Origin: Olavius sp. associated proteobacterium Delta 1
GTDB taxonomy: Bacteria > Desulfobacterota > Desulfobacteria > Desulfobacterales > JAFDCJ01
Assembly: GCA_902749685.1 (NCBI GenBank)
Contig: CACVKW010001110.1
Span: 1 to 32,000, forward strand
Length of the DNA: 32,000 nt
Direction of reading: 5' to 3'
The notes beneath the pieces were generated by a model, which was given only the letters and a program-made list of their open reading frames with translations, had not been told where the DNA came from and did no database searches. Positions within the stretch are counted from its first letter, which is position 1. Each line of letters starts with the position of its first letter. Of the stretch, positions 784 to 27,360 are shown piece after piece. A program made the position numbers and the translations under genes.

Positions 784-1848
784 TCACTCCGAGGTTTGAG
801 ATATAAAATGTTGAATAACCGGCAACAGGCCTACGACCCCTTCCTGGAGCGGTCGGATGACGGGCAGCCCGAGTCTTTGCGTAAGTTCGTCCCGGTAACG
901 GATTAAGTCCTCCCCGGTTCCTCCCTCTCCGTTCAGGCTAACGGCCAGGGTCTCAGCGCCGTACATTTTTATTAATTTGATCTCGTCTGCGACATCGGGT
1001 AATCGGCAGCCCAGGCGCTCCAACTCTTCATAATGTGTTCTGAAAGGCGCATGTTGCAGAATAACTCCCTTTGCATTGGCCGAGACAATAATTTCCGAAC
1101 CGCAGGGACCGGAGGGATTTCTGAGGCCGGATTGGCCTTCGATAAGAATCAAATCCGGAGAAGACTGACGGTTGCATTCCACGATAGCATGTTCAAGTTC
1201 CCCGCTGACAAAATCATTGAGCGTGGCGTCGAAAATAAATCCGTGCCTGTATCCCTGCAACCAACCGGTTTGCCCGGTGTAGATCATTTCAGCCTGAATT
1301 CCATTTTTGCGGCACGTTTCCTCTATAAAACGGCAGGTTGTTCTTTTGCCGATGGAGCAATCCATCCCGAGGACGGCTATTCGAGGTGTATGGACTTTAT
1401 AGATCTCACCGTTCCAAAAGTGAAGCTGGTCGATGGGTTTGGGCTTGCGAAGATCCATGATTTGAACACCATTTTTGCGGGCCGCCTCCCGCAGTACAAG
1501 GATTTCACTTAATGGGTAGTGCATGGTGCTGATGATGTTAATACAGCTTTGGATAGCTTCGAGCAGAATTTTATGCCAGTCCTCCGGCAGCTTCCCGCCG
1601 CTTAGCGCGACGCCGACGATGCCGAAATCCGGTTTTTGATGCTTCTGTTCCATAAATTCAGCGATCGATGCATACACGGGTATGTTTCTGCGCCGACCGT
1701 CCAGGACTTCGCCTGCATCTCTCCCGGCGCTTACCGGATCAATTACACCAACGATCTTAAAGCGGCTGGTTCCTCGAATAAGACCATGTGCAGTCTTCGC
1801 ATCGTCAGTCTCCAGCCGTCCGTTTGTTAGAATAAGTGCAGTATCCAT
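784..1848 (-). CDS. DUF1611-family protein (DgcN-like putative N-acetyltransferase)
   Basis: Motifs TAHGLIRG and GMDCSIGKRTT (P-loop-like) are typical of DUF1611. The ORF-track TTG start at 1881 lies inside a heptamer repeat, so the start was trimmed to ATG 1846-1848 (MDTALILTNG...). The gene is adjacent to an enolase-superfamily epimerase, as is common for this family. Confidence 0.75.
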   Translation of the reverse strand: MDTALILTNGRLETDDAKTAHGLIRGTSRFKIVGVIDPVSAGRDAGEVLDGRRRNIPVYASIAEFMEQKHQKPDFGIVGVALSGGKLPEDWHKILLEAIQSCINIISTMHYPLSEILVLREAARKNGVQIMDLRKPKPIDQLHFWNGEIYKVHTPRIAVLGMDCSIGKRTTCRFIEETCRKNGIQAEMIYTGQTGWLQGYRHGFIFDATLNDFVSGELEHAIVECNRQSSPDLILIEGQSGLRNPSGPCGSEIIVSANAKGVILQHAPFRTHYEELERLGCRLPDVADEIKLIKMYGAETLAVSLNGEGGTGEDLIRYRDELTQRLGLPVIRPLQEGVVGLLPVIQHFISQTSE

Positions 1849-1857
1849 AGGTAAGCA

Positions 1858-1897
1858 TAGGTTGAGCGGTTCAGGATTCAACGTTCAGGGTTGAAAA
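1858..1897. repeat. 7-nt periodic array (GGTTCAR-type) in the leader of the DUF1611 gene
   Basis: Reads CGGTTCA GGATTCA ACGTTCA GGGTTGA. Positions 1858-1889 are 29/32 identical to 24362-24393. Confidence 0.7.
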
Positions 1898-1978
1898 ACC
1901 CCAACAACAGCTCAAATCAAATAAATTTAAATAACCAAAATTCAAATGGCCGAAACGGGATATTGATTGGTAATCCTT

Positions 1979-3073
1979 TCAATCCGCAATCTGAAATCTG
2001 CAATCCGCAATCCACTTCACCCCGAGTCCCGGTTGGTCGGTTACAGATAACTCACCGTCTTTGAGAACGAAACCGCCTTCCACCAGATCCCTGGCCAGAT
2101 CCAGACTACCGTCCAGATCCAGGTAGCGGGTGGCCGGAGAAGCCAGGGCGGCGTGCAGGGCGGCGGCGATGCCGACCCTGCTCTCATCCATACATCCCCA
2201 CATCAAATCAATGCCGGCCAGATTGGCGAGTTCAGCGATCTGCAACCCCGCAGCAATGCCGCCGCACTTCATCAGCTTGATGTTGAAGATACCAAACGCA
2301 AACGGCGGCTGCAAGCATTCGAGGGCATCCCGGGCATCGAGCAGGCTCTCGTCGGCCACCGTCATTTTCCGCATCGATTCAGGCAGCCGGCGCATGCTGT
2401 CCAGATCACGGGCCGGTAATGGTTGTTCGATAAATTCCAGGTTTAGTGAATCGGTTTGATCAATGAAATATTTATATTCCTCCCGTGAGTACCCCTGGTT
2501 GGCATCCACCCGCAGGATCATGTCCCGGCCCGTGTGCTGGCGGATTTGACTCAGACATTCCACATCCTGCTCAACCGACTGCCCGATTTTGATTTTGAGA
2601 ATTTTAAAACCCCGTCCCTTATACTCGTCTGCTTCTTCGAGCGACTCGGCCACGGATTTTATCCCGATGGTAATAGACGTCGGCAACGACCGGTGGCACC
2701 GTCCCAGCAAATCAACCAGCGGCAAACCCAGATGCCTGGCCCATAGATCATGTAACGCAATATCGATTGCGGCCCGGGCCGCAGGCTGGGTGGGCATGCT
2801 GTTCTCCGCATTTCTCAGAATATTTCTTAAATGTCGGATATCCGCACCCATAACCAAGGACTCGAGACCGCTCTCCAGTGCCTGACGGCAATCCTGCACG
2901 CTTTCGCCGGTGACTTCTGCGTCCGGAGCGGCAACTCCCACACCAATCGAACCATCTTCTGTCTGCAGGCAAACAAAAATATTTTCAACTGAATCGATGC
3001 GCTCGTAGGCGATGGTGTACGGCCGTGTCAACTCGAACGGTTCGGTCCAGTATATTGCTTTGGTGATTTTCAT
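1979..3073 (-). CDS. enolase-superfamily (MR/MLE) dipeptide or N-acyl-amino-acid epimerase/racemase
   Basis: Carries KIKIG (KxK), VDANQGY, IEQPL, ADES and FNIKLMKCGGI catalytic and metal-ligand motifs. The start was trimmed from GTG 3109 to ATG 3071-3073 (MKITKAIYW...). The last 11 codons are encoded by the heptamer array at 1980-2014. Confidence 0.8.
   Translation of the reverse strand: MKITKAIYWTEPFELTRPYTIAYERIDSVENIFVCLQTEDGSIGVGVAAPDAEVTGESVQDCRQALESGLESLVMGADIRHLRNILRNAENSMPTQPAARAAIDIALHDLWARHLGLPLVDLLGRCHRSLPTSITIGIKSVAESLEEADEYKGRGFKILKIKIGQSVEQDVECLSQIRQHTGRDMILRVDANQGYSREEYKYFIDQTDSLNLEFIEQPLPARDLDSMRRLPESMRKMTVADESLLDARDALECLQPPFAFGIFNIKLMKCGGIAAGLQIAELANLAGIDLMWGCMDESRVGIAAALHAALASPATRYLDLDGSLDLARDLVEGGFVLKDGELSVTDQPGLGVKWIADCRFQIAD
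1980..2014. repeat. 7-nt periodic array CAATCCG CAATCTG AAATCTG CAATCCG CAATCCA
   Basis: Direct reading. It overlaps the last 11 codons of the epimerase ORF. Confidence 0.75.
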
Positions 3074-3405
3074 AATCTTTATCTTTTTTGCGATGACCGC
3101 CACCAACACTCAATTTAGGTTATCGTAATCCATATGGCAAAAATTAACTTTTAGTTGATTAATCAAAAAAGATGTAATTTACCTAAAATTTGATATAAAC
3201 GACAGCGAGGTGGATATTAGAAGTTTGTGAGACGGGATGCAAGAGGATTTTTAAATTTCAGGGACGGGTTCTTCTCCATAGGCGCTAAACTATTTATACC
3301 CGGGGGTGATTTTGGGCGGCTTAATGAAAATGTTGGACGTTCGATGCTTGCAGTCCGCCTCTGGAGGATTCGATGTTCAGCCAGTTTGTGTTTAAGGCTC
3401 AGCTT

Positions 3406-4011
3406 TTATAGGGCTTTTAGCGGGCTGTCCTGTTTTACGGCTTTTACCTGGTTTTCACCCCAGCGCTGAAATAGATCGTGTTTGATGCCCAGAAAATCGA
3501 ATACTTTTCCAATCGTTTGATCGATGATGTCATCGAGGGTTTTGGGCTTATGATAAAAGGAGGGTACCGGAGGCAGGATATGGGCGCCCATGTCAGCGGC
3601 CATGGTCATCAGCCGCAAATGTCCCTTGTGAAGCGGCGTTTCTCTAACAACGAGCACCAATTTGCGTCCTTCTTTCAGCGTTACATCCGCTGCTCTGACC
3701 AGTAGATTTTCGTTGTAGGAATTGGCAATACCGGATAGTGTTTTTATGGTACACGGTACCACCACCATGCCGTCAGTCAAAAAAGAACCACTGGCCAACG
3801 AGGCCGCTATATCCTTGTGTTCATAAACGTGGTCGGCCATCGCCTCAACTTCATCAGGCTTGTAATTGGTTTCGATCTTGATGTTTAACCTTCCTGAATC
3901 GGATATGATCAGATGGCTTTCATAATCGGTTTTTTCCAGTAAACTGAGTAGCCGGACGCCGTAAGTTACGCCACTGGCGCCTGAGATTCCTACTACTATT
4001 CGTTTTGGCAT
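3406..4011 (-). CDS. ubiX: flavin prenyltransferase UbiX (prenyl-FMN synthase)
   Basis: Carries GISGASG near the N-terminus and VVPCTIKTLSGIANSYNENLLVRAADVTLKEGRKLVLVVRETPL. Start is ATG 4009-4011 with GAGGA upstream. It lies 28 nt downstream of the UPF0261 stop. Confidence 0.9.
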   Translation of the reverse strand: MPKRIVVGISGASGVTYGVRLLSLLEKTDYESHLIISDSGRLNIKIETNYKPDEVEAMADHVYEHKDIAASLASGSFLTDGMVVVPCTIKTLSGIANSYNENLLVRAADVTLKEGRKLVLVVRETPLHKGHLRLMTMAADMGAHILPPVPSFYHKPKTLDDIIDQTIGKVFDFLGIKHDLFQRWGENQVKAVKQDSPLKAL

Positions 4012-4039
4012 GAATTTCCTCTTTCAAATTTTATTTTTA

Positions 4040-5251
4040 TTAAAATATTTTCAACGCATTTTCAACTACCGCCTGCGCGAATTCCGGATCTTCCATGTTG
4101 GCGTCGACTTCCACTATCTGAAGATCGGTCTTGAGTTTTTTCCGCAGAACTTCAGTAAACAATCGGTCTTCGGCCGGATCATAGGTTGGATTTCCGGGAA
4201 GATCTGCCGAGGACCATCCCTTAAGCGGTATCAAAATTCTTACCGGGCTCCGGGCTCGGTTCAGTTTTTCCGCGAAAGCATTGGCGACCTTATTTAATTC
4301 ATCCGGGGAAATACGCAGCCAGGTGCGAAGGTTATCCAGATCATATTTTCGTCGTTGCCTGTGCTCCGAAGTATATTTGGATTTTGAAGGTGTTATGTGG
4401 TTCACACTACAGGTGGATATGATTTGAGGTATTCCGACTTTCCCGGCAGATTCCAGGCGGTTTGGGCCTGAATCTCTCATAAAACCAAAAAGATGTTCTC
4501 CAACTCCACCAGGGGCTAAATCAATAATTCCCTGAAACATTTCAAGTGAGATCATTTCCTCCATGGCCCGGTCGCAGATTCCGGCTGCATGGAAACCAAT
4601 GACCTGGTATCCGGATTCTTGCAAGGCGTTCTGAACCCCATTTGCACATTTATCGCAGGGTCCAAGCATTGTCATGGCAATGGCCTTTCCTTTGCCCGTA
4701 TTCGGTGGAGTCATTTCCCCGAGAATCATACCGGCAATAGCATGGGCTGCCCTGTCAAAGACATTTTTAAGTAGATCTGAGAGCCCTGATAACTCAATAA
4801 CCGAATGAAAAAGGGTAATATCACCGGTTCCGATATACCGGGTTGAAAGCCCGGGCAGAGCAGCGGCAGAAGAAATCATCAATTTGGGAACACCGAAGGG
4901 GAGCGTCCGCATCACCTCAGTGATCATAAACGTTCCGGTTGCGCCTCCCATGCCGGTAACCCCGTGGATCTTACCCTCCGCCTGCAGCTGTTTGGCAATT
5001 TTCGATGCCCCCGCTATTGTAATATTGGTAATCTGCGTACGATCCTTAGAATTGCGGATTTCATCAAAATTACCACCACCGGCAGCGGCCACACGATCGG
5101 GGGTTATATCGGCAAGGGAAGCTATTGTTCCTCGCATGGAGATATCCATTAGCAGCGGTTGGAGACCACACGCTTTAATTTTATCTTTGAGATACAACGT
5201 CTCCGGTTGCTTGGTGTTCAAAGTGGAGATGACAAGAACGGTTTTTGGCAT
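4040..5251 (-). CDS. UPF0261 family protein (Tm-1-like ATP-binding domain), paralogue 1
   Basis: 403 aa. Carries family motifs STLNTKQPE, LPFGVPKLMISS, FHAAG....AMEEM and EDPEFA. Colinear with the ORFs at 15355-16584 and 19712-20929. Confidence 0.8.
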   Translation of the reverse strand: MPKTVLVISTLNTKQPETLYLKDKIKACGLQPLLMDISMRGTIASLADITPDRVAAAGGGNFDEIRNSKDRTQITNITIAGASKIAKQLQAEGKIHGVTGMGGATGTFMITEVMRTLPFGVPKLMISSAAALPGLSTRYIGTGDITLFHSVIELSGLSDLLKNVFDRAAHAIAGMILGEMTPPNTGKGKAIAMTMLGPCDKCANGVQNALQESGYQVIGFHAAGICDRAMEEMISLEMFQGIIDLAPGGVGEHLFGFMRDSGPNRLESAGKVGIPQIISTCSVNHITPSKSKYTSEHRQRRKYDLDNLRTWLRISPDELNKVANAFAEKLNRARSPVRILIPLKGWSSADLPGNPTYDPAEDRLFTEVLRKKLKTDLQIVEVDANMEDPEFAQAVVENALKIF

Positions 5252-5338
5252 AGATTAACCTGCTCTCTACGAATTAAACATTTATGTGCTACCACATAGA
5301 AATGATTTGAAGCCTTGTTTGTCTGTTAATGTAATAAT

Positions 5339-5385
5339 GAATGGATTATTTTTTAATTAAAAAACATTTAAAATAGAATCCATTC
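5339..5385. other. AT-rich stem-loop between the CoA-ligase stop and the UPF0261-1 start
   Basis: GAATGGATT (5339-5347) and AATCCATTC (5377-5385) are perfect 9-bp arms. The loop contains the 16-bp palindrome TTTTTTAATTAAAAAA. Confidence 0.45.
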
Positions 5386-5392
5386 CTTAATT

Positions 5393-7048
5393 TCAGGCTT
5401 CTTTTGCCACTTTCTCCGCGATCTCTTTTTTCAGAGTTTCCTTATTAACTTTCCCCGAATCGCCGACGGCGGGAAATTCATGTACTACTTCAAGACGTTC
5501 GGGGAGTTTATACATGGCCAGTTTTTTTCCTTTGAGGAACTCAACCATTTCTTCAAAGACGAATTCCTGGCCGGCTTTGGGGATGACATAGGCACATGTC
5601 CGCTCACCCATTTCCCGGTCCGGGTAACCCACCACGGCGACCGAGGCGACTTTCGAATGATCATTTAAAAGTCCTTCGATTTCCGCCGGATAAATATTTT
5701 GCCCGCCGCGGATGATCATGTCCTTGGCCCGCCCCAGGATCCATAGACATTCCTGATCGAATTTAACGATGTCCCCGGTTGTGGTCCATCCTTTTGGATC
5801 GAAGACGGTGGCGGTGAGTTCTTCATCCCGGTAGTAACCGGCCGGTGCGTGGGGTCCTCTGAAATACAGAACACCGGGTTCGCCATCAGCTACCGGTTCG
5901 TCGGTGTCTTTGTCCAGCAGGCGGACCTTGTTGCCCGGCAGCATGCGCCCGACGGTCCGGCGTCGAAGATCCTTGGAATCTTCTACCCGGCAGCCGGAAA
6001 CCGAGCCCATATCCTGGGTTCCCAGATCACTGGTGATATTGGCTCCGAAGGCGGTTTCGGCCTCTTCAGCTATCTGGGGAGAGAGATAGCCGCCGGCGGA
6101 GCGGATAAAACGCAGCGAACTCAAATCGTATTTGGAGGCATCGATTTCGAGCATTCTGACCAGGTGGGTCGGTACCACACCGATGGCGGTGGCCTTTTCC
6201 TTTTCAATCAGGGCCAAAGCGGCTTCCGGATCGAATTCTTCCAGCATAACTGTCTTGGCGCCGGCCAGCGGAGCGGCAAAATAGGTGAGGGTGCCGGCAG
6301 CCCCTCCGGCATGGGGTGCAATCGCCATGGTGGTGTCCTGGTTGGTAAGGCCCCATATGTCTACCCGGCCTTTGGAGGTGCATACGCGCGGGGCTGTGGG
6401 CCATTCCACCAGCTTGGGTATGCCGGTGGTTCCCGATGTCGTTGTCAGCAGGGCCACATCCCCGATCGGGTCTAAGCGTCGCGCTTTGAGGACATCTTCG
6501 TCAATGGGTTTTTGAGCTGCCGCTTGTGCTAATTGGGTTAGCGAATAGGTTCCTTCCGGTGCGCCTTGCGGTACTTCGTCGTCGAATAAAAAAATCTTTT
6601 CCAGATGCGGAAACTGCTTCTGAAGATCCTTGTACATTTCAAGATAATTGAAATTGCGGTATTCATTTAGAATGACAACGGCGGCGGCCTCAGTTCTCTC
6701 CACCATGTAAGTCAACTCTCTTTCCCGCAAATACGGATAAACGGTAAGAGAAATCAGGCCGGCTCTTTCAGCCGCAATTCGTGCCAGAAAGCCATACACA
6801 CTGTTCGGCGATTGAATAATGATTCTGGATGATCGAGGAATATCCATCTGTACCCAGGTGAAGGCAATGGCATCCACCAGATTTTTGGCTTCAGCCCAGG
6901 TAACGCGGTACTTGGAATCAACCAGGGCTTCCTGGTCCCCAAACTCGCGGGCGTTTCTTTGCCAGAAATCATAAAAAAGCTCATGCGTCCAATACCCGTC
7001 CGATAAAAATTCATCCACCATTTCCTGCTTATAGCGAATTGGTTTCAC
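5393..7048 (-). CDS. AMP-forming acyl/aryl-CoA ligase (adenylate-forming superfamily)
   Basis: Carries TSGTTGIPK (6413-6439), a GYW-containing N-terminus resembling aryl-acid-activating members, GDIVKFD and a C-terminal lysine region. Start is GTG 7046-7048, 6 nt downstream of GGGAGG. Confidence 0.85.
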   Translation of the reverse strand: MKPIRYKQEMVDEFLSDGYWTHELFYDFWQRNAREFGDQEALVDSKYRVTWAEAKNLVDAIAFTWVQMDIPRSSRIIIQSPNSVYGFLARIAAERAGLISLTVYPYLRERELTYMVERTEAAAVVILNEYRNFNYLEMYKDLQKQFPHLEKIFLFDDEVPQGAPEGTYSLTQLAQAAAQKPIDEDVLKARRLDPIGDVALLTTTSGTTGIPKLVEWPTAPRVCTSKGRVDIWGLTNQDTTMAIAPHAGGAAGTLTYFAAPLAGAKTVMLEEFDPEAALALIEKEKATAIGVVPTHLVRMLEIDASKYDLSSLRFIRSAGGYLSPQIAEEAETAFGANITSDLGTQDMGSVSGCRVEDSKDLRRRTVGRMLPGNKVRLLDKDTDEPVADGEPGVLYFRGPHAPAGYYRDEELTATVFDPKGWTTTGDIVKFDQECLWILGRAKDMIIRGGQNIYPAEIEGLLNDHSKVASVAVVGYPDREMGERTCAYVIPKAGQEFVFEEMVEFLKGKKLAMYKLPERLEVVHEFPAVGDSGKVNKETLKKEIAEKVAKEA

Positions 7049-7072
7049 GGCATACCTCCCATTATAAGTTCA

Positions 7073-7218
7073 AAGCTGAAAGCCCAAAGTTTGATGTTAT
7101 AAGTTTTTAGGAATCATAGGTTCTATATTGATGTGAATGTTTTGCTCAGAAGTTATAGCGAAAGCTCATTACCCTGCCGGGGCAGGGCTTTGAGCCTTTA
7201 CCTTTGAGCTTTCAGCTT
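7073..7218. repeat. complementary heptamer-word arms (AAGCTGAAAGCCCAAAG / CTTTGAGCTTTCAGCTT) spanning the ubiD-like / ligase intergenic gap
   Basis: Arms 7073-7089 and 7202-7218 are 16/17 complementary. The internal perfect hairpin CCCTGCCGGGGCAGGG lies at 7172-7187. Confidence 0.65.
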
Positions 7219-7220
7219 CC

Positions 7221-8627
7221 CTATAGCCCCAGTTCCGACCAGCGCCCCTTGACTCTTTCAACCATCTCCGGATCCAGTTCAATTGGAATCGGCTTATCTT
7301 TCCAATCGTATGGAATCGTGGCGTCCAGCAGCAGTCGGCCTGTGATTTCTCGGGCATTTATCGGCAAGGAGGGATCCAGCGGTGTGGACCGACCGCGTTT
7401 AATGACCTGGGATCGATTGGGCTGGAAGCGGAAGCTTAAGGCATACATGACGCGGGGAATATCCCAGGGATCAATATCTTCGTCGACGACGATCACAGTT
7501 TTCAGCCCGTAAGCGCCCATTTCTGTTGAAATCGCGGCTGTCAATACCTGGTCGGCGTGGCCCGGATACATCTGCTTCATTGAGATAATGGCCAGAAAGC
7601 GGCCGGAGCCTTCCGGCGGACAGTAGACGGCCTTTAAACCGGGTATCTTCATGGCCAAAAGTTGCTGCCAAAGAGTGGCGCCGTATGAAAGTGCCATGGT
7701 CATGTGGGTATCGGTGACGGCCCGGCCGACGGTGGTTCCCCACAAAATCGGGTTGTTTCTGTGGGTGACGCATTTAACATCGATAAAATTTCGCGGATCT
7801 GTGCCGACGCCGGAATAGTAGCCGGTGTATTCGCCGAAAGGTCCTTCTTCCATAAATTTATCGGCATCCACCTCACCTTCTATGACGATTTCGGCTGTGG
7901 CCGGAATGGGAAGATCCACTGTTTCGCCTTTGACAACTTCCACGGCTTCACCCCGCAACGCGCCGGCGACATCGTATTCGGAGGTAAAGGCTGAGATGCG
8001 GGCCGCTCCAAGGATGAACAACAGGGGATCGCATCCGATGACCGAGGCCACCGGCATGGGTTTGCCCATGGCCTGGTATTTTTTCAGCATGATGTCGGCG
8101 TGTTTGCCCTTGATGAACTGGGTCCCCATCTTATCTTTGCCGAGAAGCTGGCTGCGGTATGTGCCCAGGTTAACCCAGCCGGTTTCAGGATCTTTGGAAA
8201 TGATGAAATGCGCGGTGCCGATAAACCGGCCACCGTCCAGGGGATACCACTGGGGAACGGGAAATTTGAAAAGATCGATGTCGTCGCCTGTCAGGATATT
8301 CTCTTTACAGGGTGCGGCTGAGGATTCCACCGTCTTGGGCGGTATCAGGTTATCACCCAGTTTGGCCCATTCATTGTAAAGGTCTACCAGGGTGGATTCG
8401 AGGGGCAATCCCATGATTAAAGCAAGCCGCTGGGTCGTGGTGCAGACACTGGTGATGACCGGCGTGTCATAATCTTTTACATTTTCAAAAAGCAGCGCCG
8501 GACCGCTGGCCTCTTCATTTAGTTTGGCGATATGTGACAGCTCTAAATTCCAGTCGACTTCGGCGGTGATCCGTTTACACAGTCCGATTTCTTCACCTTG
8601 GGCTACAAAATCTCTCATGTCTTTCAT
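7221..8627 (-). CDS. UbiD-family prenyl-FMN-dependent (de)carboxylase
   Basis: 468 aa. Carries LGTYRSQ and EGPFGEYTGYY (7815-7847), which are UbiD signatures. Start is ATG 8625-8627 with GGAGA upstream. Confidence 0.9.
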   Translation of the reverse strand: MKDMRDFVAQGEEIGLCKRITAEVDWNLELSHIAKLNEEASGPALLFENVKDYDTPVITSVCTTTQRLALIMGLPLESTLVDLYNEWAKLGDNLIPPKTVESSAAPCKENILTGDDIDLFKFPVPQWYPLDGGRFIGTAHFIISKDPETGWVNLGTYRSQLLGKDKMGTQFIKGKHADIMLKKYQAMGKPMPVASVIGCDPLLFILGAARISAFTSEYDVAGALRGEAVEVVKGETVDLPIPATAEIVIEGEVDADKFMEEGPFGEYTGYYSGVGTDPRNFIDVKCVTHRNNPILWGTTVGRAVTDTHMTMALSYGATLWQQLLAMKIPGLKAVYCPPEGSGRFLAIISMKQMYPGHADQVLTAAISTEMGAYGLKTVIVVDEDIDPWDIPRVMYALSFRFQPNRSQVIKRGRSTPLDPSLPINAREITGRLLLDATIPYDWKDKPIPIELDPEMVERVKGRWSELGL

Positions 8628-8716
8628 TTTGATACGTTTCTCCTCTCTAACTTTGGGTTGGCTAATTTTTTCTGTTTCTCGAAAATAAACGCGATGTAAT
8701 GCAGAACAATGGTAAA

Positions 8717-8869
8717 GGGCGTAAGGTATAAGGTGTGAGGTGTAAGGTATAAGGTGTAAGGTTGAAGGTATAGAACGGGCCGAAGCCCCAGGCCGTGCGA
8801 CGGATCCTTGACCCTAAACCCTAAACCCTATACCCTATACCCTAAACCCTATACCTTATACCCTATCCC
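8717..8869. repeat. paired heptamer arrays: C-free arm (RTAAGGT)x7 and G-free arm (CCCTAWA)n
   Basis: The left arm has seven units at 8721-8769. The right arm spans 8806-8869, with C3 tracts at exact 7-nt spacing over 8812-8849. In register the arms are roughly 70% complementary (about 5 of 7 positions per unit). The loop spans 8773-8805. Confidence 0.8.
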
Positions 8870-8899
8870 TTTCTTTACTGATACCTTGAACCCATTTTA

Positions 8900-9970
8900 T
8901 TATTCCGGAAGCTTGATCCGTTTCATCGCCTGATCCATCAACAACTGGTAACCGGTCTTTTTGCCGAGCACCGATTCCTTCTTGCGCTGGCTCCAGACGG
9001 TTTCCGGGCGTGCCTGAACAATGAAAATATTTTCCGGGAATAGAAAATCCTTATCGATGGCCCACTCGATATCCATGGCGCGTCCGTAGTGCGCTTCTAT
9101 GGTTTTGGCTGTTTTGACCAGTTCTCTTATTTCCCGGTCCTCGAGACAGCAGGTGCACTGCAGGTCTTCGGCGACCTCGGCGTCGACGGTTTCTCCTTTT
9201 TCTACGTCGAAGACACACTCAATGTGCTTGGTGGAGATGGTCCGCTCATTGATCTCCCCCATGACCTTGTCGACGACGAACTTGTCCGGGTTGACGGAAC
9301 CGGATACAACCGTTTCTCCCAAACCCCAGCTTCCTTCAAGCACGACTTTGGAAATATCACCGTCGGTGGGATTCAGGGTGAACATCACCCCCGCTGCCCT
9401 TGAATTCACCATATTCTGGACACCGACACTGATCAGTACCTTTTCGTGGGGGAAGTCGTTTTTGACCCGGTAGCTGATGGCCCGCGGCGTATACAGGCTG
9501 GCCCAGCACTTTCGGACACTTTCAATGACCCGCTCAGCGCTCATTATCCAAAGGTAAGTGTCCTGTTGCCCGGCAAAACTGGCCGTGGGCAGATCTTCGG
9601 CGGTCGCACTGGATCTGACTGCCACCGGAAGGGCGTCAATCCCGCATTTTTCGCAAAGCAGGGCATAACCCTCGCCGATCGCCTTTTGGACATCACCGGG
9701 GATAACGGCAGTCTTGATCATTTCCTGGACTTTTTCGGCGGTTTGGTTGAGCGCATTGATATTTTCGGGATCCAGATCCGCCAAAAGGCTGAAAATCGTA
9801 TCATTTATCCCGGCTTTTTCCATAAATACCGAATAGCTGTTGGTGGTGACGGCAAATCCTGGCGGAACCCGGATGCCGGCATTGATCAATTCGCCCAGGC
9901 TGGAATTTTTACCACCAACCAATGGCAGCGAACCTTTATTTAGTTTGCGAAAATCCAGGATTAAATCCAT
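8900..9970 (-). CDS. PEP-synthase N-terminal-type ATP-binding subunit (phenylphosphate synthase beta-like)
   Basis: 356 aa (~39 kDa). Carries VGGKNSSLGEL and RSSATAEDLPTASFAGQQDTY, signatures of the PPDK/PEP-synthase nucleotide-binding domain. It has no His or PEP domains. Start is ATG 9968-9970 with GGGAGG upstream. Confidence 0.8.
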   Translation of the reverse strand: MDLILDFRKLNKGSLPLVGGKNSSLGELINAGIRVPPGFAVTTNSYSVFMEKAGINDTIFSLLADLDPENINALNQTAEKVQEMIKTAVIPGDVQKAIGEGYALLCEKCGIDALPVAVRSSATAEDLPTASFAGQQDTYLWIMSAERVIESVRKCWASLYTPRAISYRVKNDFPHEKVLISVGVQNMVNSRAAGVMFTLNPTDGDISKVVLEGSWGLGETVVSGSVNPDKFVVDKVMGEINERTISTKHIECVFDVEKGETVDAEVAEDLQCTCCLEDREIRELVKTAKTIEAHYGRAMDIEWAIDKDFLFPENIFIVQARPETVWSQRKKESVLGKKTGYQLLMDQAMKRIKLPE

Positions 9971-10009
9971 TATTGTCCTCCCGCAAAATCTCCAAAATCT
10001 CTTTTAGGA

Positions 10010-10033
10010 CCCCTTCCCCGGGCGGGGAAGGGG
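10010..10033. other. GC-rich perfect hairpin between the pps-alpha-like stop and the pps-beta-like start
   Basis: CCCCTTCCCCG (10010-10020), GG, CGGGGAAGGGG (10023-10033). Confidence 0.6.
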
Positions 10034-10086
10034 CAGAAGGTTGTCACTATCACGCATGTCTGAAAGGGTACTCGAAGCGAGGCTAT

Positions 10087-11949
10087 TTAACTTGCTCTTT
10101 CGACAATCGTGACAGTACCGGTATCCCCATCGACTTTGACAATATCCCCGGTTTGGATCGCGGCTGTGGCGATACCGCAGCCGGTTACCGAAGGCACGCC
10201 ATATTCCCGGCAGACAATCGCCGCATGGCTGGTCAGCCCGCCGATGTCAGTAACCGCAGCCTTGATATTGGTGAACACCGGGGCCCAGGATGGATTGGTC
10301 GACGGGCAAACCAGAACCTCACCCGGTTGCAGGTCGACAATGTCCTTGAGCCGCTTGAGGACCCGCGCCGGACCTTCAGCCATGCCGGCCGAAGAGGCAA
10401 AACCCTTGATTTCAGAGAGGTCCGCACCTGCCGTTGTATCAGCGCCTTTGAGCCATTCTTTAACCTTGTCGGTGGTAATACCCCACAGCATGATGGTGAA
10501 CGGCTCGGCCACTTCTTCGGGCGGTACGCCCAGCGCCGGTGTCGGATTCCATTCGACGGCAGCCTCGAGGATCTTTTTGCGTTTTGCGGCCTTGGATTTA
10601 TAGTAACCACCCCTGACCGGTATATCCACGCCCAGAGCCCAGGCAGTTGCAACTTCAGTCAGAAGCTGCGGAATCTCGTAGCGGTTGAACATAAATATGT
10701 CGTCCACCTCATTAATCATTCCGTTGGCAACCAGAACGGATCCAATTTGTCTGATTTTTTTATACCAGATGGTGTGAAACCAGTGTTCCACCCAGAAGAG
10801 ATGGTCCTCGGCATAGCGGTAGATGGTTCTGATGGTGTTATAGGCATCCTCAAAAGCTTTACGGTCGTCGTCGGTTTGGATCATCTTGCGGTACTCGGCG
10901 ACAATTTCATCGCGTTCCTTCTCGATCTTTTCCAGGGAGCGCTCGATGGTTTCGCCCCTGTCCAGCCTTTCCACATAACCTTTGATATAGCTGTAGGGAA
11001 TGTCCAAATCAGTGAGCCAGCTGCCCTCGTGGTTATACCAGCCGCTGCCGCAGGATACGTAAAACCAGGGATCACTTGACTTTTCATATTCGGCCAGCCA
11101 GTTTTTGCCGGCTTCTGATTGTTGAAGCTCGGCAACCTTGTCGGCGGCGGATTTGGTGCTCTTGAGAATGTTGCCTACGCCATCCGCAGAAACCGCCAGG
11201 CGGGCGAGCCGACAAAGCTCTTCTTCGGGGCGGAACATGGAAACATAAGCGCCGGCGACCATCTTGCCGATGGCGCTTTCACTGATCCCCGGAAAAAGTT
11301 TACGCGAAACATCCGCGAACATGAGATAGGCCAGATAGGTCAGGTTGAGCATTTCAAAATGATATTGCCAGCCCTTAAACATCTGGTTGACCAGCTTGTC
11401 GAAAGACTCGATCAGGTTATAGCTGTCATAGAAACCAGTGGGTGCCGGCAGGACCTGATCGTCGGGAACATACTTAGGCAGCTCTTGCGGGATCTGAACT
11501 GCGCTCATTTCTTCACCCAGGGCTTTAAATTTGGTTAACCACTTGTCCCACAATTCATCGTAGTGTTCAAAGACATAAAATACCCGTTTTTCGAAATGCC
11601 CGGCTTTTTCAGCGATAATTTCATCCGGCGGTGGGGCAATCGCGCAAATATACAAATAGCCGCCCACTATTCGCTGGGCGATGCCCTGGGCGGGAGGGAT
11701 GCAAAATACCCTTGTTGTATATTGTGATAGCGAAATCTGCCATGCTTCCTGGAAGATTAAATCCAGCGGTGGTAATGGTTCCGGGGCATGGATTTTGTCT
11801 TGATACCAGAACTGAGCTTTTTCCCATTCTTCTCTGTCCTTGGAAAACAGGTGGTGAGTCGGGTACATCTCTTCCCAGCCTTCAAGCTCGGGAGGGACTT
11901 GGAATTCGTGAGGATCCGGAAATCTTCCTTCATTATCGGCCATTTTCAT
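10087..11949 (-). CDS. PEP-utilising enzyme, mobile-His-domain subunit (phenylphosphate synthase alpha-like)
   Basis: 620 aa (~68 kDa). The C-terminal GGLTSHAAIVCREYGVP has its His codon at 10225-10227. The N-terminus reads FPDPHEFQVPPELEGWEEMYP. Start is ATG 11947-11949 with AGGAGG upstream. Confidence 0.8.
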   Translation of the reverse strand: MKMADNEGRFPDPHEFQVPPELEGWEEMYPTHHLFSKDREEWEKAQFWYQDKIHAPEPLPPLDLIFQEAWQISLSQYTTRVFCIPPAQGIAQRIVGGYLYICAIAPPPDEIIAEKAGHFEKRVFYVFEHYDELWDKWLTKFKALGEEMSAVQIPQELPKYVPDDQVLPAPTGFYDSYNLIESFDKLVNQMFKGWQYHFEMLNLTYLAYLMFADVSRKLFPGISESAIGKMVAGAYVSMFRPEEELCRLARLAVSADGVGNILKSTKSAADKVAELQQSEAGKNWLAEYEKSSDPWFYVSCGSGWYNHEGSWLTDLDIPYSYIKGYVERLDRGETIERSLEKIEKERDEIVAEYRKMIQTDDDRKAFEDAYNTIRTIYRYAEDHLFWVEHWFHTIWYKKIRQIGSVLVANGMINEVDDIFMFNRYEIPQLLTEVATAWALGVDIPVRGGYYKSKAAKRKKILEAAVEWNPTPALGVPPEEVAEPFTIMLWGITTDKVKEWLKGADTTAGADLSEIKGFASSAGMAEGPARVLKRLKDIVDLQPGEVLVCPSTNPSWAPVFTNIKAAVTDIGGLTSHAAIVCREYGVPSVTGCGIATAAIQTGDIVKVDGDTGTVTIVERAS

Positions 11950-12166
11950 CCTCCTAATTTTGTGGGATTAATCCTTATTAATAGAGCCTGCATTCGCTCG
12001 AACATAGATTTTGCACGTACCGATCAGAAGTAGGGATGACAGCACCGGAGAACAATAATGTAAATTAAACGGAAATAAGGCCCATCGCATCAGGCACCGA
12101 TTGCATAAATCTGAATTGCAATCAGCTATTTATGAACAAAATTAAAAAAACTGTCAATCCAATTAT

Positions 12167-12194
12167 ACTTATGCTATTGATAAGTTATTCTTAT
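12167..12194. promoter_or_regulatory. overlapping dyads ACTTAT-N7-ATAAGT and ATAAG-N5-CTTAT (T-N11-A type), candidate LysR box
   Basis: Direct reading. Located in the divergent lysR / pps-like intergenic region, about 220-245 bp upstream of the pps-alpha-like ATG. Confidence 0.35.
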
Positions 12195-12253
12195 GGATGT
12201 GAATAATGTATAAAAATAGTTTGGGTAAAGGGAGACGGTGTAAGGGAACGGCG

Positions 12254-12387
12254 TAGGGCACACGGCACACGGCACACGGCGCACGGCGCAAGGAAAATGG
12301 ACAGGCGTGAGGTGTAAACCAGGTGTATGTGTAAGGTATAAGGTCTATGGTGTAAGGTCTATGGTGTAAGGTATAAGGTGTAAGGTT
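12254..12387. repeat. two adjacent heptamer arrays: (CACGGCR)x4-5 then (GTAAGGT/ATAAGGT/CTATGGT)x8
   Basis: The CACGGCA/G units span 12261-12288. Eight units span 12331-12386. Positions 12363-12387 are identical to 8739-8763. Confidence 0.8.
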
Positions 12388-12459
12388 TTAGGCGCACGGC
12401 AAAGGAATGGATGTTTGGTATCCGGTTTAGGACTTAGGGCCTGGGAGAAGCAAACCGCA

Positions 12460-12565
12460 GAATATCGAATAACGAATATCGAATCCTCCGGAGGCGGACA
12501 AGTGTCGGAGGAAGGAATTCCGCCATCCGGGCTCTGACACCAATAACCAATAACGAATAACTATT
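12460..12565. repeat. composite element: (GAATAWC)x4 array, bulged 11-bp hairpin, (AACSAAT)x4 array
   Basis: Arrays lie at 12460-12487 and 12538-12565. The hairpin pairs CCGGAGGCGGA (12488-12498) with TCCGCCATCCGG (12519-12530). The element ends about 10 nt before the lysR ATG. Confidence 0.65.
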
Positions 12566-12576
12566 AATTGCATCTC

Positions 12577-13536
12577 ATGCTCAACTTCAACCAACTTCGT
12601 GTTTTTTATAAGGCTGCAAAGAATTTAAATTTTACCGCCGCCGCCAACGAGCTTTTTATTACGCAACCCGCTGTTACGTTTCAGGTGAAGTCTTTCGAAG
12701 AATATTGCGAATTAAAACTGTTTAAAAAAAAAGGGCGCCGAGTATATCTGACGGACGAAGGTAAAGCGCTACTTGAATACGCGGAAAAAGTTTTTCAATA
12801 TGAAAAAGAAATCGAAAACGCCATCGATGAAATGCGGGAATTAAAACGCGGCGTGCTTCGCCTCGGAACCACCAAAGCGTATGCTCGTTATTTTATGCCT
12901 CTGATGATCACCTCCTTTCACAATAAATTCCCGAATATAAAAATCCAGCTGAATGAGGGCAGCTCGGCAGACATGATTTACAGTTTAGTCGATTTTAAAA
13001 TTGATGTGGCGGTTATTGCCAAAGCGGTTGAGCACCCCGAGGTAAATTTTTATCCCTTCAGCAGGGAAGAGATGGCCTTAATTGTCGCTCCTGATCACCA
13101 TCTTGCCGAAATAAAGGAGATTTCGTTTAAAGAATTATCAAAAGAGCTATTTATCATGAAAGAGAATGGTTCGGGAACCAGAAAGCTTGTCGAAGAATTA
13201 TTCACGAAGGCAAAATGTACACCCAATATATTAATGGAGACGAGCAATACCGAGTTCATTAAACAGCTAGTTAACCGCGGAGAGGGCGTATCTTTTCTGG
13301 TGCGAGAGGCGGTGGCAGCTGAGCTCAACAATAATTATCTGGCTGAGGTGCCTATAAAGGGGCACAAAATTCTCTTAGATGTCAGCATCGCCTATTTAAA
13401 GGCACAGGTGCTTTCGCCACCGGCCCGGGCATTTGTGGATACCCTAACCAAGCTGCGATCGGAAGTTATTGATCCCATGGGTATCGGCGCCCTTATGACA
13501 AGGATTCTTGCGCAGCGCAGAAAAGACAAAAAATGA
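12577..13536 (+). CDS. LysR-family transcriptional regulator
   Basis: N-terminal HTH reads FTAAANELFITQPAVTFQVKSFEE, followed by a C-terminal substrate-binding fold. The ORF track starts at TTG 12568. The first ATG is at 12577, so the start is ambiguous by 3 codons. It is divergent from the pps-like operon. Confidence 0.9.
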   Translation: MLNFNQLRVFYKAAKNLNFTAAANELFITQPAVTFQVKSFEEYCELKLFKKKGRRVYLTDEGKALLEYAEKVFQYEKEIENAIDEMRELKRGVLRLGTTKAYARYFMPLMITSFHNKFPNIKIQLNEGSSADMIYSLVDFKIDVAVIAKAVEHPEVNFYPFSREEMALIVAPDHHLAEIKEISFKELSKELFIMKENGSGTRKLVEELFTKAKCTPNILMETSNTEFIKQLVNRGEGVSFLVREAVAAELNNNYLAEVPIKGHKILLDVSIAYLKAQVLSPPARAFVDTLTKLRSEVIDPMGIGALMTRILAQRRKDKK

Positions 13537-15354: not shown

Positions 15355-16584
15355 TCATTGCGCGGACTGTAATTGATCAAAAGCCTTCAAAATAGCCAGG
15401 GCAAACTCCGGATCGTTGATATGGCAGGGGAGTAGACTCACCATCATCTGATCATTTAGATGCGCCTGTAATGTTTTGGCGAACAGTTGCGGTGCGTCAG
15501 GGTCGTATAACGGTCCTTCTTTGCTGTCAAAAGCGGAAAATCCGTCCATCGGTATCAGCATCTTTACCGGGCCGACGGCCTCATTGCACCTATTGGCAAT
15601 AGTTCGGGAAAGAATTTCAATTTCTGCACGGGTTGAACGAACCACCGTTATGGCCGCATTGTGCACGTGATAAGGCCGGTCGGGAAACAGGCGCCGGGCG
15701 TTTTCCAGGGGGCCGCTAACCAGAAAATCGATATTACCCGGGATAAGAATGGTCGGCAGGCCCAGTTGCAAAGCAGTGTTGCCCCTGTCCGGACCGGCGT
15801 CATAATCACCGCCGAAAAGATGATCTCCTAATTCGTGCAGTGAAAGGTCCACCAGGATTGATACCCCCTCCGGCTCGATCATCTCTTCCATGGCCTCGCC
15901 GCCGGAGCCCACTGTGTGAAATATGACAACTTCGTTGCCCTTTTCTTCCAGAGTCCGGCGCACCTGCTGGGCGCAGGCTTCAGTCGTGCCCAGGGTGGAA
16001 AGAAAAACCAGTGGTTTTGATATGTGATCTTCAGTGACCGGCGCCGGTTGCAGCATGCCCGCTAATGCCATGGCGCCATTGCGAAGTATTTTTCTGGTGA
16101 GGCGATTCAGACCGGCCAGATCACATACTGCATGCAGCATCAAAATATCCTTGGTTCCCACGAATGCCCTGGTGTCGCGTGAAGCCATGGTGGAAATCAT
16201 GACCTTGGGCACCCCGACGGGGAGAGATCGCATTACTCCGCTGGCCAGAGTCGTACCCATAGAACCGCCTAGGCCGATGACTCCCTGAATTCGGTTTTGG
16301 AGATATAACTTCTGAGCGCAGGCAATTGCTCCATTGGTCATTACTTCGAGGGCTTGACCTTCATGACCGATATTTTGAACTTCTTCCAGCGATATTCCGC
16401 CGGCTTTAGCAACTTCTGTTCGACTGATATTTACCGGGACGGGGCTGTGTCCTTTAATGCCCGCATCCATGGTCTGAACGGATATGCCGGCTTGTTGAAG
16501 GCAGGTTGAAATAAAAAGAGCTTCCTGACCTTTGGTATCCATGGTGGCAATCAGAAGTGCTTCAGCGGACTGGGTCAAAATCAC
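15355..16584 (-). CDS. UPF0261 family protein (Tm-1-like ATP-binding domain), paralogue 2
   Basis: 409 aa. Carries ATMDTKGQE, LPVGVPKVMISTMAS, FHTVGSGGEAMEEM, LHELGDHLFGG, GPLYDP and HINDPEFA. Start is GTG 16582-16584. Confidence 0.8.
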   Translation of the reverse strand: MILTQSAEALLIATMDTKGQEALFISTCLQQAGISVQTMDAGIKGHSPVPVNISRTEVAKAGGISLEEVQNIGHEGQALEVMTNGAIACAQKLYLQNRIQGVIGLGGSMGTTLASGVMRSLPVGVPKVMISTMASRDTRAFVGTKDILMLHAVCDLAGLNRLTRKILRNGAMALAGMLQPAPVTEDHISKPLVFLSTLGTTEACAQQVRRTLEEKGNEVVIFHTVGSGGEAMEEMIEPEGVSILVDLSLHELGDHLFGGDYDAGPDRGNTALQLGLPTILIPGNIDFLVSGPLENARRLFPDRPYHVHNAAITVVRSTRAEIEILSRTIANRCNEAVGPVKMLIPMDGFSAFDSKEGPLYDPDAPQLFAKTLQAHLNDQMMVSLLPCHINDPEFALAILKAFDQLQSAQ

Positions 16585-18847: not shown

Positions 18848-18857
18848 GGCAGAGATT

Positions 18858-20929: not shown

Positions 20930-21018
20930 TGGTGCCTCGAAATTCCGACTTTCGACTTCATAAATCTGACCTCTAAATTTTGGCATCCGTCGTCCGTCTA
21001 CGCTTTGCGTATTTCCCT

Positions 21019-21498
21019 TTACACCTCATGCAAACTGAAAAATCCATCCTTGTGCCAGATCAGCGGCGGTTTTCCCGTATCCTGCTGAGAAACGACTCGT
21101 CCAATAAATATTCGGTACCCCTGAATCTCATGGCTGCTTTCAACATTGCAAATCATCCAGGCCGCAGCTCCTTCAGGTATTAACGCCTGGCTCCATGTTT
21201 CGGAGATGGATTTAATGGAAAATTTTTCAAATTTATCCACATTATCCCCCTTGACACTGCCAACCTGCTTGGCCAGCTGCTTGTGGCTTGCGCCGGCGAT
21301 AACCAGGGTAAACTTAGCTGATTCCAGTATCAGTTTCTCCGTGAGATGGCCCTGGGCAACACTGATCGCCAGCAGGGGCTCTTTTTCAGACACAAACATG
21401 GCCGTGGCCGTCATGATGTCACGTGCCGCACCATGCGCTGTACTCACAAAAACCACCGAACACGGCAGCCAGTAAAAGACATTGTTTTCTCTATCCAT
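21019..21498 (-). CDS. flavin reductase-like (FMN-binding split-barrel) protein
   Basis: 159 aa with the pattern VVFVSTAHGAARDIMTATAMFVS..PLLAISV....T..LI.ES..F.L.I, then GSVKGDNVDKF and GYRIFIGRVV. Start is ATG 21496-21498 with GGAGGA upstream. Confidence 0.72.
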   Translation of the reverse strand: MDRENNVFYWLPCSVVFVSTAHGAARDIMTATAMFVSEKEPLLAISVAQGHLTEKLILESAKFTLVIAGASHKQLAKQVGSVKGDNVDKFEKFSIKSISETWSQALIPEGAAAWMICNVESSHEIQGYRIFIGRVVSQQDTGKPPLIWHKDGFFSLHEV

Positions 21499-21971: not shown

Positions 21972-22376
21972 ATGAGTGACAAACTTACCGTAACCGGAAA
22001 AATTGTAAGTGGAGAGAAAAAAGGGGCTTTTTTTACCCAGCTTGATTGGGTTCAGAATCAGTGCCAGGAAAAACTTGGGTTCAAACCCTTTCCGGGTACG
22101 CTCAACCTTGAAGTCGAGGAAGCAAAAATTCCCCATATCGAAGCGCTCTTCAAGAGAAGCAGCATAGAACTGGTGCCGCCGGATTCAAATTTTTGTGACG
22201 GACATGTGTATCCGGTATCGATCATGGGCATTGCCGGAGCCATAGTCGCACCGGCTGAAGATGTCAGGGTCCATGGCAAAAATATTATTGAATTAATCGC
22301 TCCCACCCGTTTGAAAGATGCAATGGACGTGGATGATGGGGATGAGATCATGCTGGTAATTACTCCGCCCAGATAA
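21972..22376 (+). CDS. ribK: archaeal-type (CTP-dependent, RibK/DUF120) riboflavin kinase domain protein
   Basis: 134 aa. GKIVSGEKKGAFFTQLDWVQNQCQEKLGFKPFPGTLNLEV matches the RibK signature (GxVxSGxGxG.F....., GF.PFPGTLNL). Confidence 0.78.
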   Translation: MSDKLTVTGKIVSGEKKGAFFTQLDWVQNQCQEKLGFKPFPGTLNLEVEEAKIPHIEALFKRSSIELVPPDSNFCDGHVYPVSIMGIAGAIVAPAEDVRVHGKNIIELIAPTRLKDAMDVDDGDEIMLVITPPR

Positions 22377-27348: not shown

Positions 27349-27360
27349 AAATATAAGACC

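Follow-up and report, generated by a model that had tools for sequence, protein, structure and literature searches.

A probable phenol-activation operon with a conserved UPF0261 gene in the Olavius symbiont Delta 1

Contig CACVKW010001110.1 of the Olavius sp. associated proteobacterium Delta 1 exhibits, in the 32-kb stretch analysed here (positions 1 to 32,000; hereafter the window), an operon of six minus-strand genes (positions 3406 to 11949) encoding two dikinase subunits, a UbiD-family enzyme, an aryl-acid ligase, a UPF0261 protein and UbiX, next to a divergent LysR-type regulator gene. A previous reading made by a model from the letters and open reading frames (ORFs), the sequence-only reading, saw here a reduced or rewired route of activation, carboxylation and thioesterification, whose substrate it held to be unreadable. 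Is this pathway an unusual one, and on which compound does it act? Domain architectures, the match to the family model of PpcB (the phenylphosphate carboxylase beta subunit) and the ligase homologues support such a three-step route. The operon is, however, one more representative of a strict-anaerobe variant that has been described before, and the pathway is not rewired. We estimate at about 70% the probability that it is a LysR-controlled operon, in the form used by strict anaerobes, which serves to activate phenol, or a simple phenolic compound close to it, under anaerobic conditions.

Dikinase, UbiD and ligase genes

The six co-directional genes and the divergent LysR gene of the sequence-only reading stood in every coordinate and domain assignment when compared with the ORFs and the Pfam and NCBIfam families. 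A Shine-Dalgarno sequence had also been placed before each start; five operon starts are preceded by one of the GGAGG or GAGG type, but that of the UPF0261 gene is weak. Over 13-15 kb, the metagenome contigs L087-L089 match the window with 100% identity.

The first two genes encode a two-subunit dikinase. The PpsA-like alpha subunit (10087..11949, minus strand; 620 amino acids (aa) as first read) comprises an aromatic-substrate-binding domain and a C-terminal His-swivel domain. Its start is more likely the ATG at 11943, with AGGAGG 6 nt upstream, which gives 618 aa, as called on the identical contigs; the mobile-histidine motif stands exactly where it had been seen. This motif, GGLTSHAAIVCREYGVP, corresponds to residues 570-586 of the 620-aa protein, and the codon of His575 is CAT at 10225-10227. 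The swivel motif TDIGGLTSH contains His575, the phospho-carrier by family, and agrees with the family pattern TxxGGxxSH (PMC12167813). The PEP (phosphoenolpyruvate)-utilizers mobile domain at residues 541-611 is the only Pfam domain, and the protein scores 849 bits against NF006153 (cut-off 578). It is 42% identical to the PpsA encoded on plasmid pAZKH of Azoarcus sp. KH32C; homologues from a Rhodococcus plasmid and from a haloarchaeon reach 40% and 45%, respectively. The PpsB-like beta subunit (8900..9970, minus strand; 356 aa), an ATP-grasp protein that presents ATP to alpha, is encoded 116 bp downstream of the alpha gene. As had been claimed, it carries N-terminal PEP-synthase signatures only, PPDK_N (residues 16-334, E-value = 8e-119) being its sole domain. 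It is 55% identical to Azoarcus PpsB and matches PDB 9goj, a 387-aa stand-alone homologue, with 246 bits.

The pair exhibits the features that define the two-component aromatic dikinases (PpsAB, HpeHI, CreHI, PasAB): an alpha subunit of ~70 kDa with the T/SxxGGxxxH motif, and an adjacent ATP-grasp beta subunit of ~40 kDa. In this family both components are needed, the swivel histidine carries the phosphoryl group, and AMP is formed (PMC12167813). The third, stimulatory CBS-domain subunit PpsC of the strict PpsABC type had no tblastn match in the window or in 83 related loci. Its absence had been considered unusual; yet PpsC is dispensable for activity (PMC6114531), reports on HpeHI, CreHI and PasAB mention no third subunit, and the two-subunit form is the norm in the characterised family.

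The third gene (7221..8627, minus strand; 468 aa) encodes a PpcB-type UbiD (de)carboxylase, the presumed phenylphosphate carboxylase core dependent on prenylated flavin mononucleotide (prFMN). All three UbiD domains were identified (Pfam), and the protein passes the TIGR02724 model "phenylphosphate carboxylase beta" (512 bits, cut-off 468.95) while falling well under the cut-offs of the quinone UbiD, VdcC and PpcA models. Its identity with Azoarcus PpcB is 49-51%, against 34% with PpcA and 29-31% with the third UbiD encoded in the same cluster. The motif EGPFGEYTGYY lies at 7815-7847 exactly as first reported, with E261 and E266 of EGPFGE conserved. UbiX, the flavin prenyltransferase that supplies prFMN to UbiD, is encoded by the last gene (3406..4011, minus strand; 201 aa); it scores 263.7 bits against NF004685 (cut-off 188) and 246 bits against TIGR00421 (cut-off 108.9), and is 53-56% identical to UbiX of the Azoarcus cluster. 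Searches (tblastn) of the 32-kb window with the canonical Azoarcus proteins gave no match for PpsC, PpcD, PpcG or a second UbiD (PpcA), as the sequence-only reading had stated. The window thus holds no second UbiD paralogue (alpha), small gamma subunit or HAD-type delta phosphatase, and the full PpcABCD set is lacking. Among related loci PpcD-like genes occur in one only, the hybrid operon L035 described below.

Since UbiD enzymes are reversible, the physiological role of the protein might be decarboxylation, for example of 4-hydroxybenzoate or some other hydroxyarylic acid, with kinases and ligase serving unrelated or regulatory ends. The VdcC model of hydroxyarylic acid decarboxylases does give it 321 bits. 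This is far under the cut-off of 650, whereas the protein passes the PpcB model; the window operon lacks the small VdcD/LpdD-type partner; and the strict conservation of the gene in one operon with those of an ATP-consuming dikinase and a ligase fits an energy-driven carboxylation. A decarboxylase role is accordingly very unlikely. Still less credible is a housekeeping role, that is, a split PEP synthase next to UbiD and UbiX of quinone biosynthesis, even if automated annotation labels the dikinase subunits "pyruvate, water dikinase" and the PEP synthase model gives the beta subunit 410 bits. The alpha protein lacks ATP-grasp and PEP/pyruvate-binding domains, its homology to PEP synthase being confined to the ~100-residue swivel domain, and falls among the two-component aromatic dikinases. 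Every PEP synthase and quinone UbiD model is far under its cut-off, the UbiD protein passing the PpcB model instead, and the operon includes an aryl-acid ligase next to a LysR regulator. The family scores refute this explanation.

The ligase gene (5393..7048, minus strand; 551 aa) encodes AMP-binding and AMP-binding_C domains, with TSGTTGIPK at 6413-6439, again as first read. The best homologues of solved structure are 2,3-dihydroxybenzoate-AMP ligases (DhbE, EntE) and salicylate-AMP ligases (224-242 bits). The protein is only 24% identical to the PaaK-type ligase of the canonical Azoarcus cluster, does not belong to the PaaK-like group, and reaches no NCBIfam equivalog cut-off. As the solved homologues adenylate hydroxybenzoates, we classify it as an aryl-acid adenylating enzyme of the DhbE/EntE/salicylate-AMP ligase type and not as a canonical 4-hydroxybenzoate-coenzyme A (CoA) ligase; its product is presumed to be 4-hydroxybenzoyl-CoA.

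The Desulfatiglans anilini counterpart and the likely substrate

The phe cluster of Desulfatiglans anilini (H567DRAFT_02049-02059; Xie & Muller 2018) contains pps alpha/beta and, of the carboxylase genes, ppc beta only; in that genome pps gamma, ppc alpha and ppc delta are located outside the cluster, and a ppc gamma is missing (PMC6114531). For Geobacter metallireducens, too, the same paper gives only a ppc beta homologue. D. anilini cell extracts produce phenylphosphate, and the "2,3-dihydroxybenzoate-AMP ligase" 02058 of the cluster is phenol-induced and of unknown function (PMC6114531). Genes 02056-02059 encode, in this order, a UbiX of 193 aa, a 403-aa protein annotated "Uncharacterized protein, UPF0261 family", the 552-aa ligase and a PpcB of 468 aa (PMC7500099). 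The phe cluster and the window operon both comprise a two-subunit Pps alpha/beta, a single PpcB, a DhbE-like ligase, UPF0261 and UbiX, and neither holds PpsC, PpcG or PpcD. The block PpcB/ligase/UPF0261/UbiX runs in the same order in both, with 468/552/403/193 aa in D. anilini and 468/551/403/201 aa in the window. The reduced subunit set is therefore not new but already published as the phenol-induced phe cluster, UPF0261 gene and DhbE-like ligase included, and "unusual" and "rewired" were overstatements.

In the published D. anilini proteomes (PMC7500099), the areas recorded in replicate 1 on 4-aminobenzoate, aniline, benzoate and phenol, in this order, are 0, 5.0e7, 5.3e7 and 2.5e9 for the UPF0261 protein (02057; ~50-fold phenol induction), 8.5e8, 8.0e8, 6.6e8 and 1.26e10 for the ligase (02058), and 1.5e9, 8.8e8, 8.8e8 and 1.8e10 for PpcB (02059). 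Overall, the phe proteins that match the window are 5- to 50-fold more abundant on phenol (PMC7500099).

Peptide tags derived from published primers were used to compare the D. anilini proteins with those of the window. Gene 02059 is 1407 bp, the exact length of the window ubiD gene. The UbiD termini read MKDMRD and SELGL in the window and MKSMRD and SELGF in 02059, whose internal tags TMAVSY and DPEMVK are collinear with TMALSY and DPEMVE of the window. Likewise the ppsB tags MFSLNP and PFPESI (02051) are collinear with MFTLNP and LFPENI. Among related loci, MKSMRD occurs exactly at the UbiD start in 19 and SELGF exactly at the UbiD end in 8, and both ppsB tags recur exactly in related ppsB genes. 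The D. anilini phe proteins are 42%, 38%, 49% and 56% identical to their Thauera counterparts (PMC6114531). The values for PpsA, PpsB and UbiX of the window against Azoarcus pAZKH (42%, 55% and 53%) are similar.

D. anilini also possesses an ani cluster, with Pas alpha/beta, a Ppc beta, an acyl-CoA synthetase and a UPF0261 gene (03869, 411 aa) adjoining the ligase; protein 03869 was detected only on aniline and 4-aminobenzoate (PMC7500099). The termini of the ani-cluster proteins 03868, 03871 and 03872 are unlike those of the window proteins, and Pas alpha shares no more than 27-28% identity with Pps alpha proteins. On the alpha-subunit identity levels and the UbiD termini, we rejected an aniline-type (Pas) assignment of the window operon.

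A broader alternative is that identical chemistry serves another nucleophile (catechol, hydroquinone, cresol, a halophenol or aniline) and leads to a substituted hydroxy- or aminobenzoyl-CoA. Members of the dikinase family with different phenolic substrates are ~45% identical to one another (PMC12167813), and the window alpha is 42% identical to PpsA. In a neighbour-joining tree built from references and 37 representatives (50% identity level), the family is star-like, and the window clade forms a tight, isolated and deep separate branch (at least 69% identity within), the nearest neighbours of which are haloarchaeal homologues (at most 45% identity). Azoarcus PpsA groups with the second dikinase pair of a Desulfatiglandales metagenome-assembled genome (MAG), at 57% identity. 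In this MAG (L038 6685-11863) a window-type pair and an Azoarcus-type pair, the latter 57% identical to canonical PpsA, lie back to back. The ligase being of the dihydroxybenzoate/salicylate-adenylating type, and the parallel cluster that D. anilini runs for aniline (PMC7500099), would also suit another substrate. However, the UbiD termini and length fit 02059 of the phenol cluster and not 03872 of the aniline cluster (MNDLRS... EPKF), gene order and lengths fit the phenol-induced phe cluster, and the 42% identity of the window alpha to PpsA contrasts with the low Pas values. A different nucleophile is thus rather unlikely. The caution of the sequence-only reading was fair to the extent that alpha identity cannot name the substrate, given the star-like family and an identity to PpsA (42%) on the level found among members with different substrates (~45%). 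Nevertheless, the PpcB-type UbiD and the D. anilini parallel make phenol the leading candidate, and phenol or a close phenolic compound is the best-supported substrate.

Several observations weigh against an assignment to phenol. The window alpha clade is no nearer to canonical PpsA than to homologues for other phenolics. Two ppsA primer tags of D. anilini had no clear match and are uninformative, and orthology to the D. anilini genes is drawn from gene order, protein lengths and short peptide tags. In vitro carboxylation in D. anilini required two UbiD paralogues (PMC7500099), and the window has one. A gene for 4-hydroxybenzoyl-CoA reductase, which adjoins the operon in some relatives, is absent from the window.

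With phenol as substrate, the pathway may proceed as follows. PpsB would bind ATP and PpsA would be pyrophosphorylated on His575, Pi (inorganic phosphate) being released and the phosphoryl group passed to the phenolic oxygen with formation of AMP. PpsAB would in this way convert phenol to phenylphosphate via His575; by analogy with the phe cluster, ATP-dependent phenol phosphorylation (AMP + Pi), a strict phenylphosphate synthase activity, is predicted. The single PpcB-type UbiD, with prFMN made by UbiX, would carboxylate the ring para to the oxygen, phosphate leaving, to convert phenylphosphate to 4-hydroxybenzoate. The DhbE-type enzyme is predicted to convert the latter to its CoA thioester, which may enter a benzoyl-CoA pathway encoded elsewhere.

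The operon is widespread. A genome scan with a 6-sequence alignment seed, taking one genome per species, identified at least 80 species-level loci with an alpha subunit of at least 70% identity, all in MAGs, which belong to Desulfobacterales or Desulfatiglandales except for a few that were binned as Dehalococcoidia; among the scan matches listed there was no D. anilini, Thauera or Geobacter locus. Delta 1 itself is a member of the uncultured Sva0081 clade (PMC7163020). Hundreds of further alpha relatives, at 81-94% identity, occur in Desulfobacterales metagenome bins. Matches of the window proteins to these loci (tblastn) reveal a conserved layout: LysR divergent, in most related loci, from ppsA, then ppsB, ubiD, ligase, UPF0261 and ubiX. 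In the 40 loci with at least 9.5 kb downstream of ppsA, ppsB is present in 39, ubiD in 37, UPF0261 in 36, ubiX in 35 and the ligase in 25.

Two variants of this layout were observed. L035 (2968-13743) is a natural hybrid operon in which window-type PpsAB is followed by a response regulator, a PaaK-type ligase, UbiD, UbiX, a second UbiD resembling PpcB (58% identity to that of Azoarcus), an ORF of 99 aa and a pair of PpcD-like HAD genes; it has neither UPF0261 nor a DhbE-type ligase. In L003 (15612-21854; also in L012, L015, L062 and L069), a response regulator follows UbiD, a divergent 411-aa UPF0261 has ~36% identity, and a gene for an LpdD-type prFMN chaperone lies ahead of UbiX; a 590-aa ligase and a molybdenum hydroxylase resembling 4-hydroxybenzoyl-CoA reductase are encoded downstream.

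The UPF0261 protein of the operon

A UPF0261 gene (4040..5251, minus strand; 403 aa) is indeed embedded in the operon, as had been noted, but the window holds three UPF0261 paralogues and not one. The operon protein, identical (100%) to D1BOALGB6SA_7705, is an ATP-binding protein of the Tm-1-like/MarK family with the UPF0261 N- and C-terminal domains (PF06792, PF23189). MarK, the multiple aromatic kinase Saro_1862, is a UPF0261 protein described in 2025 as an ATP-dependent, ADP-forming kinase of phenolic hydroxyls, with the ligands G195, H219, H304 and H348 (PMC12624787). It has the two-domain UPF0261 fold in common with the window protein and serves the biotin-dependent carboxylation of acetovanillone, whereas the window context is an anaerobic UbiD carboxylation. 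An acetovanillone-type pathway was rejected for the window operon, as no biotin carboxylase is present.

The two proteins match with 184 bits and 29% identity (PDB 9mpy). T15, K16, G195 and H219 of MarK are retained. The D-T-K of the ATP site corresponds to N12-T13-K14 in the window protein (D to N), where Thr and Lys are invariant in 115 orthologues. The phenol pocket, defined by G195, H219 and H304 (each >90% conserved in MarK homologues), is altered: G195 is kept, but Leu stands in place of H304, His in place of F283 and Thr in place of I285.

The gene is a regular component of the operon. It is present in 36 of the 37 related operons possessing UbiD and is as conserved as UbiX. Across loci, its divergence correlates with that of the ligase (Spearman 0.81) more than with that of PpsA (0.50) or UbiD (0.52), and three UPF0261 subtypes pair with three ligase situations. 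The sole related operon with UbiD but without UPF0261 is L035, which carries the PpcD-like HAD genes and a PaaK-type ligase. Comparative genomics (the divergence pattern and L035) assigns UPF0261 to that half of the pathway which comprises carboxylase and ligase, and it would be a conserved fourth functional element.

Its most likely job, put forward as a hypothesis only, is ATP/ADP-linked phosphoryl handling of a pathway intermediate. It may stand in for the absent delta phosphatase, or act as an ADP-forming phenolic kinase. We tentatively extend this to the proposal, possible but on balance doubtful, that UPF0261 and the DhbE-type enzyme form the missing phenylphosphate carboxylation module of strict anaerobes. 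UPF0261 would then be an ATP/ADP-linked aryl phosphotransferase, which either replaces delta/gamma in phosphate removal or opens a one-ATP, ADP-forming aryl-phosphate route. Three observations speak against the hypothesis: the pocket substitutions (T196P, F283H, I285T, H304L, H348A); the phenol-binding H219, which the window protein keeps but for which 59 of 115 close orthologues have Ser; and recombinant Pas and Ppc proteins, which were active in vitro without UPF0261 (PMC7500099), so that it is not strictly essential.

Two other roles were considered. A kinase for the supply of dimethylallyl phosphate (DMAP) or prFMN is unlikely, as the D. anilini ani cluster has UPF0261 without UbiX. A reversed MarK reaction regenerating ATP from phenylphosphate looks thermodynamically unfavourable by an uncomputed estimate. 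A full-text search on the family name retrieved no link between UPF0261 and anaerobic phenol metabolism, and two recent papers on anaerobic benzene contain no link either.

The interest that the locus retains lies in this conserved, unrecognised pairing of UPF0261 with the ligase, and in how abundant the operon is among marine sulfate reducers, its carriers being uncultured marine Desulfobacterota. One of them is the symbiont of a gutless worm (Olavius algarvensis) from phenolic-rich seagrass sediment. Given how widespread the operon is, anaerobic phenolic turnover may be a common trait of dominant sediment sulfate reducers. How phenylphosphate is carboxylated in strict anaerobes without gamma and delta, and at what energy cost, is a question dating from the Geobacter and D. 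anilini studies; the pathway is thought to cost up to four ATP equivalents. UPF0261 offers a concrete candidate: it is conserved like UbiX, phenol- or aniline-induced, and belongs to the family of a phenolic-hydroxyl kinase. If the proposal is true, the UPF0261 module would bear on how sulfate reducers afford the phenol pathway, and aromatic O-phosphorylation by UPF0261 proteins would extend to globally abundant marine Desulfobacterota.

Surroundings of the operon and comparison with known systems

The divergent LysR-type regulator (12568..13536, plus strand) exhibits HTH_1 and LysR_substrate domains; translation probably begins at the ATG at 12578, for a protein of 319 aa. The control region between it and the operon (11950..12577), read directly, contains heptamer tandem repeats. 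Within the 618-bp LysR/ppsA region, short heptamer arrays extend across 12228-12561; Tandem Repeats Finder reports arrays at 12248-12287 and 12321-12386, with the units GGCACAC (4.4 copies at 12257-12287) and AGGTGTA (9.6 copies at 12321-12386). Counts of promoter and terminator patterns showed no excess over chance, and no RNA family was found in the window (Rfam).

Upstream of LysR lies the second UPF0261 paralogue (UPFb; 15355..16584, minus strand), linked to the operon by neighbourhood only and the most MarK-like of the three (42% identity). It keeps D14, T15, K16, G195, T196, H219, F283 and H304, that is, the entire MarK ATP site and phenol pocket except H348, and is conserved upstream of LysR in related genomes. 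The third paralogue (UPFc; 19712-20986, minus strand) adjoins a flavin-reductase-like gene (21019-21498, minus strand), both identified by Pfam, in a module that is conserved in relatives. The flavin-reductase gene, UPFc and UPFb form a tight operon in L003, and this module recurs upstream of LysR in many related genomes.

A gene resembling DUF120/CTP-dependent riboflavin kinases (21972..22376, plus strand; PF01982) may contribute to FMN or prFMN supply. Its product is 27-28% identical to the DUF120 protein encoded between UbiX and NUDIX in the canonical Azoarcus cluster. There (L084 20844-22442), UbiX, DUF120 and NUDIX are consecutive, which suggests a supply module for FMN, DMAP and prFMN dedicated to these carboxylases. 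Directly downstream of ubiX (784-3109, minus strand), all identical contigs retain a gene for a dipeptide-epimerase-like member of the enolase superfamily and one of the DUF1611 (DgcN-like) family; their scores fall short of the DgcA and DgcN cut-offs. At 17978-19523 (plus strand), an EFR1-family flavodoxin/ferredoxin-like ORF (17978-18847) overlaps by ~100 bp a 258-aa ORF with no family match. As the host is known for selenocysteine and pyrrolysine recoding, the pair is possibly a single recoded gene, or else a frameshifted one. From 26000 to 32000 the G+C content rises from ~0.45-0.50 to 0.54-0.61 over a block of histidine kinase, response regulator and HlyD-type genes.

Among known systems, the full Thauera-type cluster is found on Azoarcus sp. 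KH32C pAZKH (locus L084), identified by protein search of plasmids, in the order sigma-54 regulator, ppsA, ppsB, ppsC (CBS), ppcB, ppcD, ppcA, ppcG, third UbiD, UbiX, DUF120, NUDIX and PaaK-type ligase. The canonical clusters (Thauera aromatica, Aromatoleum, Azoarcus KH32C) have in common with the window dikinase alpha and beta followed by a PpcB-type UbiD, the His-swivel mechanism, UbiX, and a DUF120 riboflavin-kinase-like gene nearby. PpsC, PpcA, PpcG, PpcD (a HAD phosphatase), the third UbiD, NUDIX, the PaaK-type ligase and the sigma-54 regulator are canonical only; UPF0261, the DhbE-type ligase and LysR are found in the window but not in the canonical cluster.

HpeHI, AcvAB and CreHI (PMC12167813, PMC9618137) resemble the window dikinase in possessing two subunits without a third, the TxxGGxxxH swivel motif and AMP formation, at pairwise identities of about 40-45%. 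They serve aerobic pathways with biotin carboxylases or P450s, unlike the window operon, and the residue before the catalytic histidine is Cys in HpeH but Ser in the window protein, PpsA and CreH. Homologues with two subunits on two plasmids also lie in aerobic contexts, quite different ones, one of Rhodococcus ruber (L085 8826-16300) amid P450, SDR, ferredoxin and HD phosphohydrolase genes, and one of Natribaculum (L086 9944-13706) with a HAD-IB phosphatase and a Rieske dioxygenase. They hint at more pathways for phenolics, haloarchaea included, in which phosphate is a transient activating group.

The ani cluster of D. anilini has in common with the window a two-subunit dikinase, one UbiD and a ligase adjoining UPF0261, but unlike the window contains no UbiX; in both the ani and the phe clusters, UPF0261 is co-induced with its own pathway. 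The phe cluster has three inserted 4-hydroxybenzoyl-CoA-reductase-like genes and a second, PaaK-type ligase, and places pps alpha/beta after the carboxylase block, whereas the window lacks these reductase genes and adds the divergent LysR gene.

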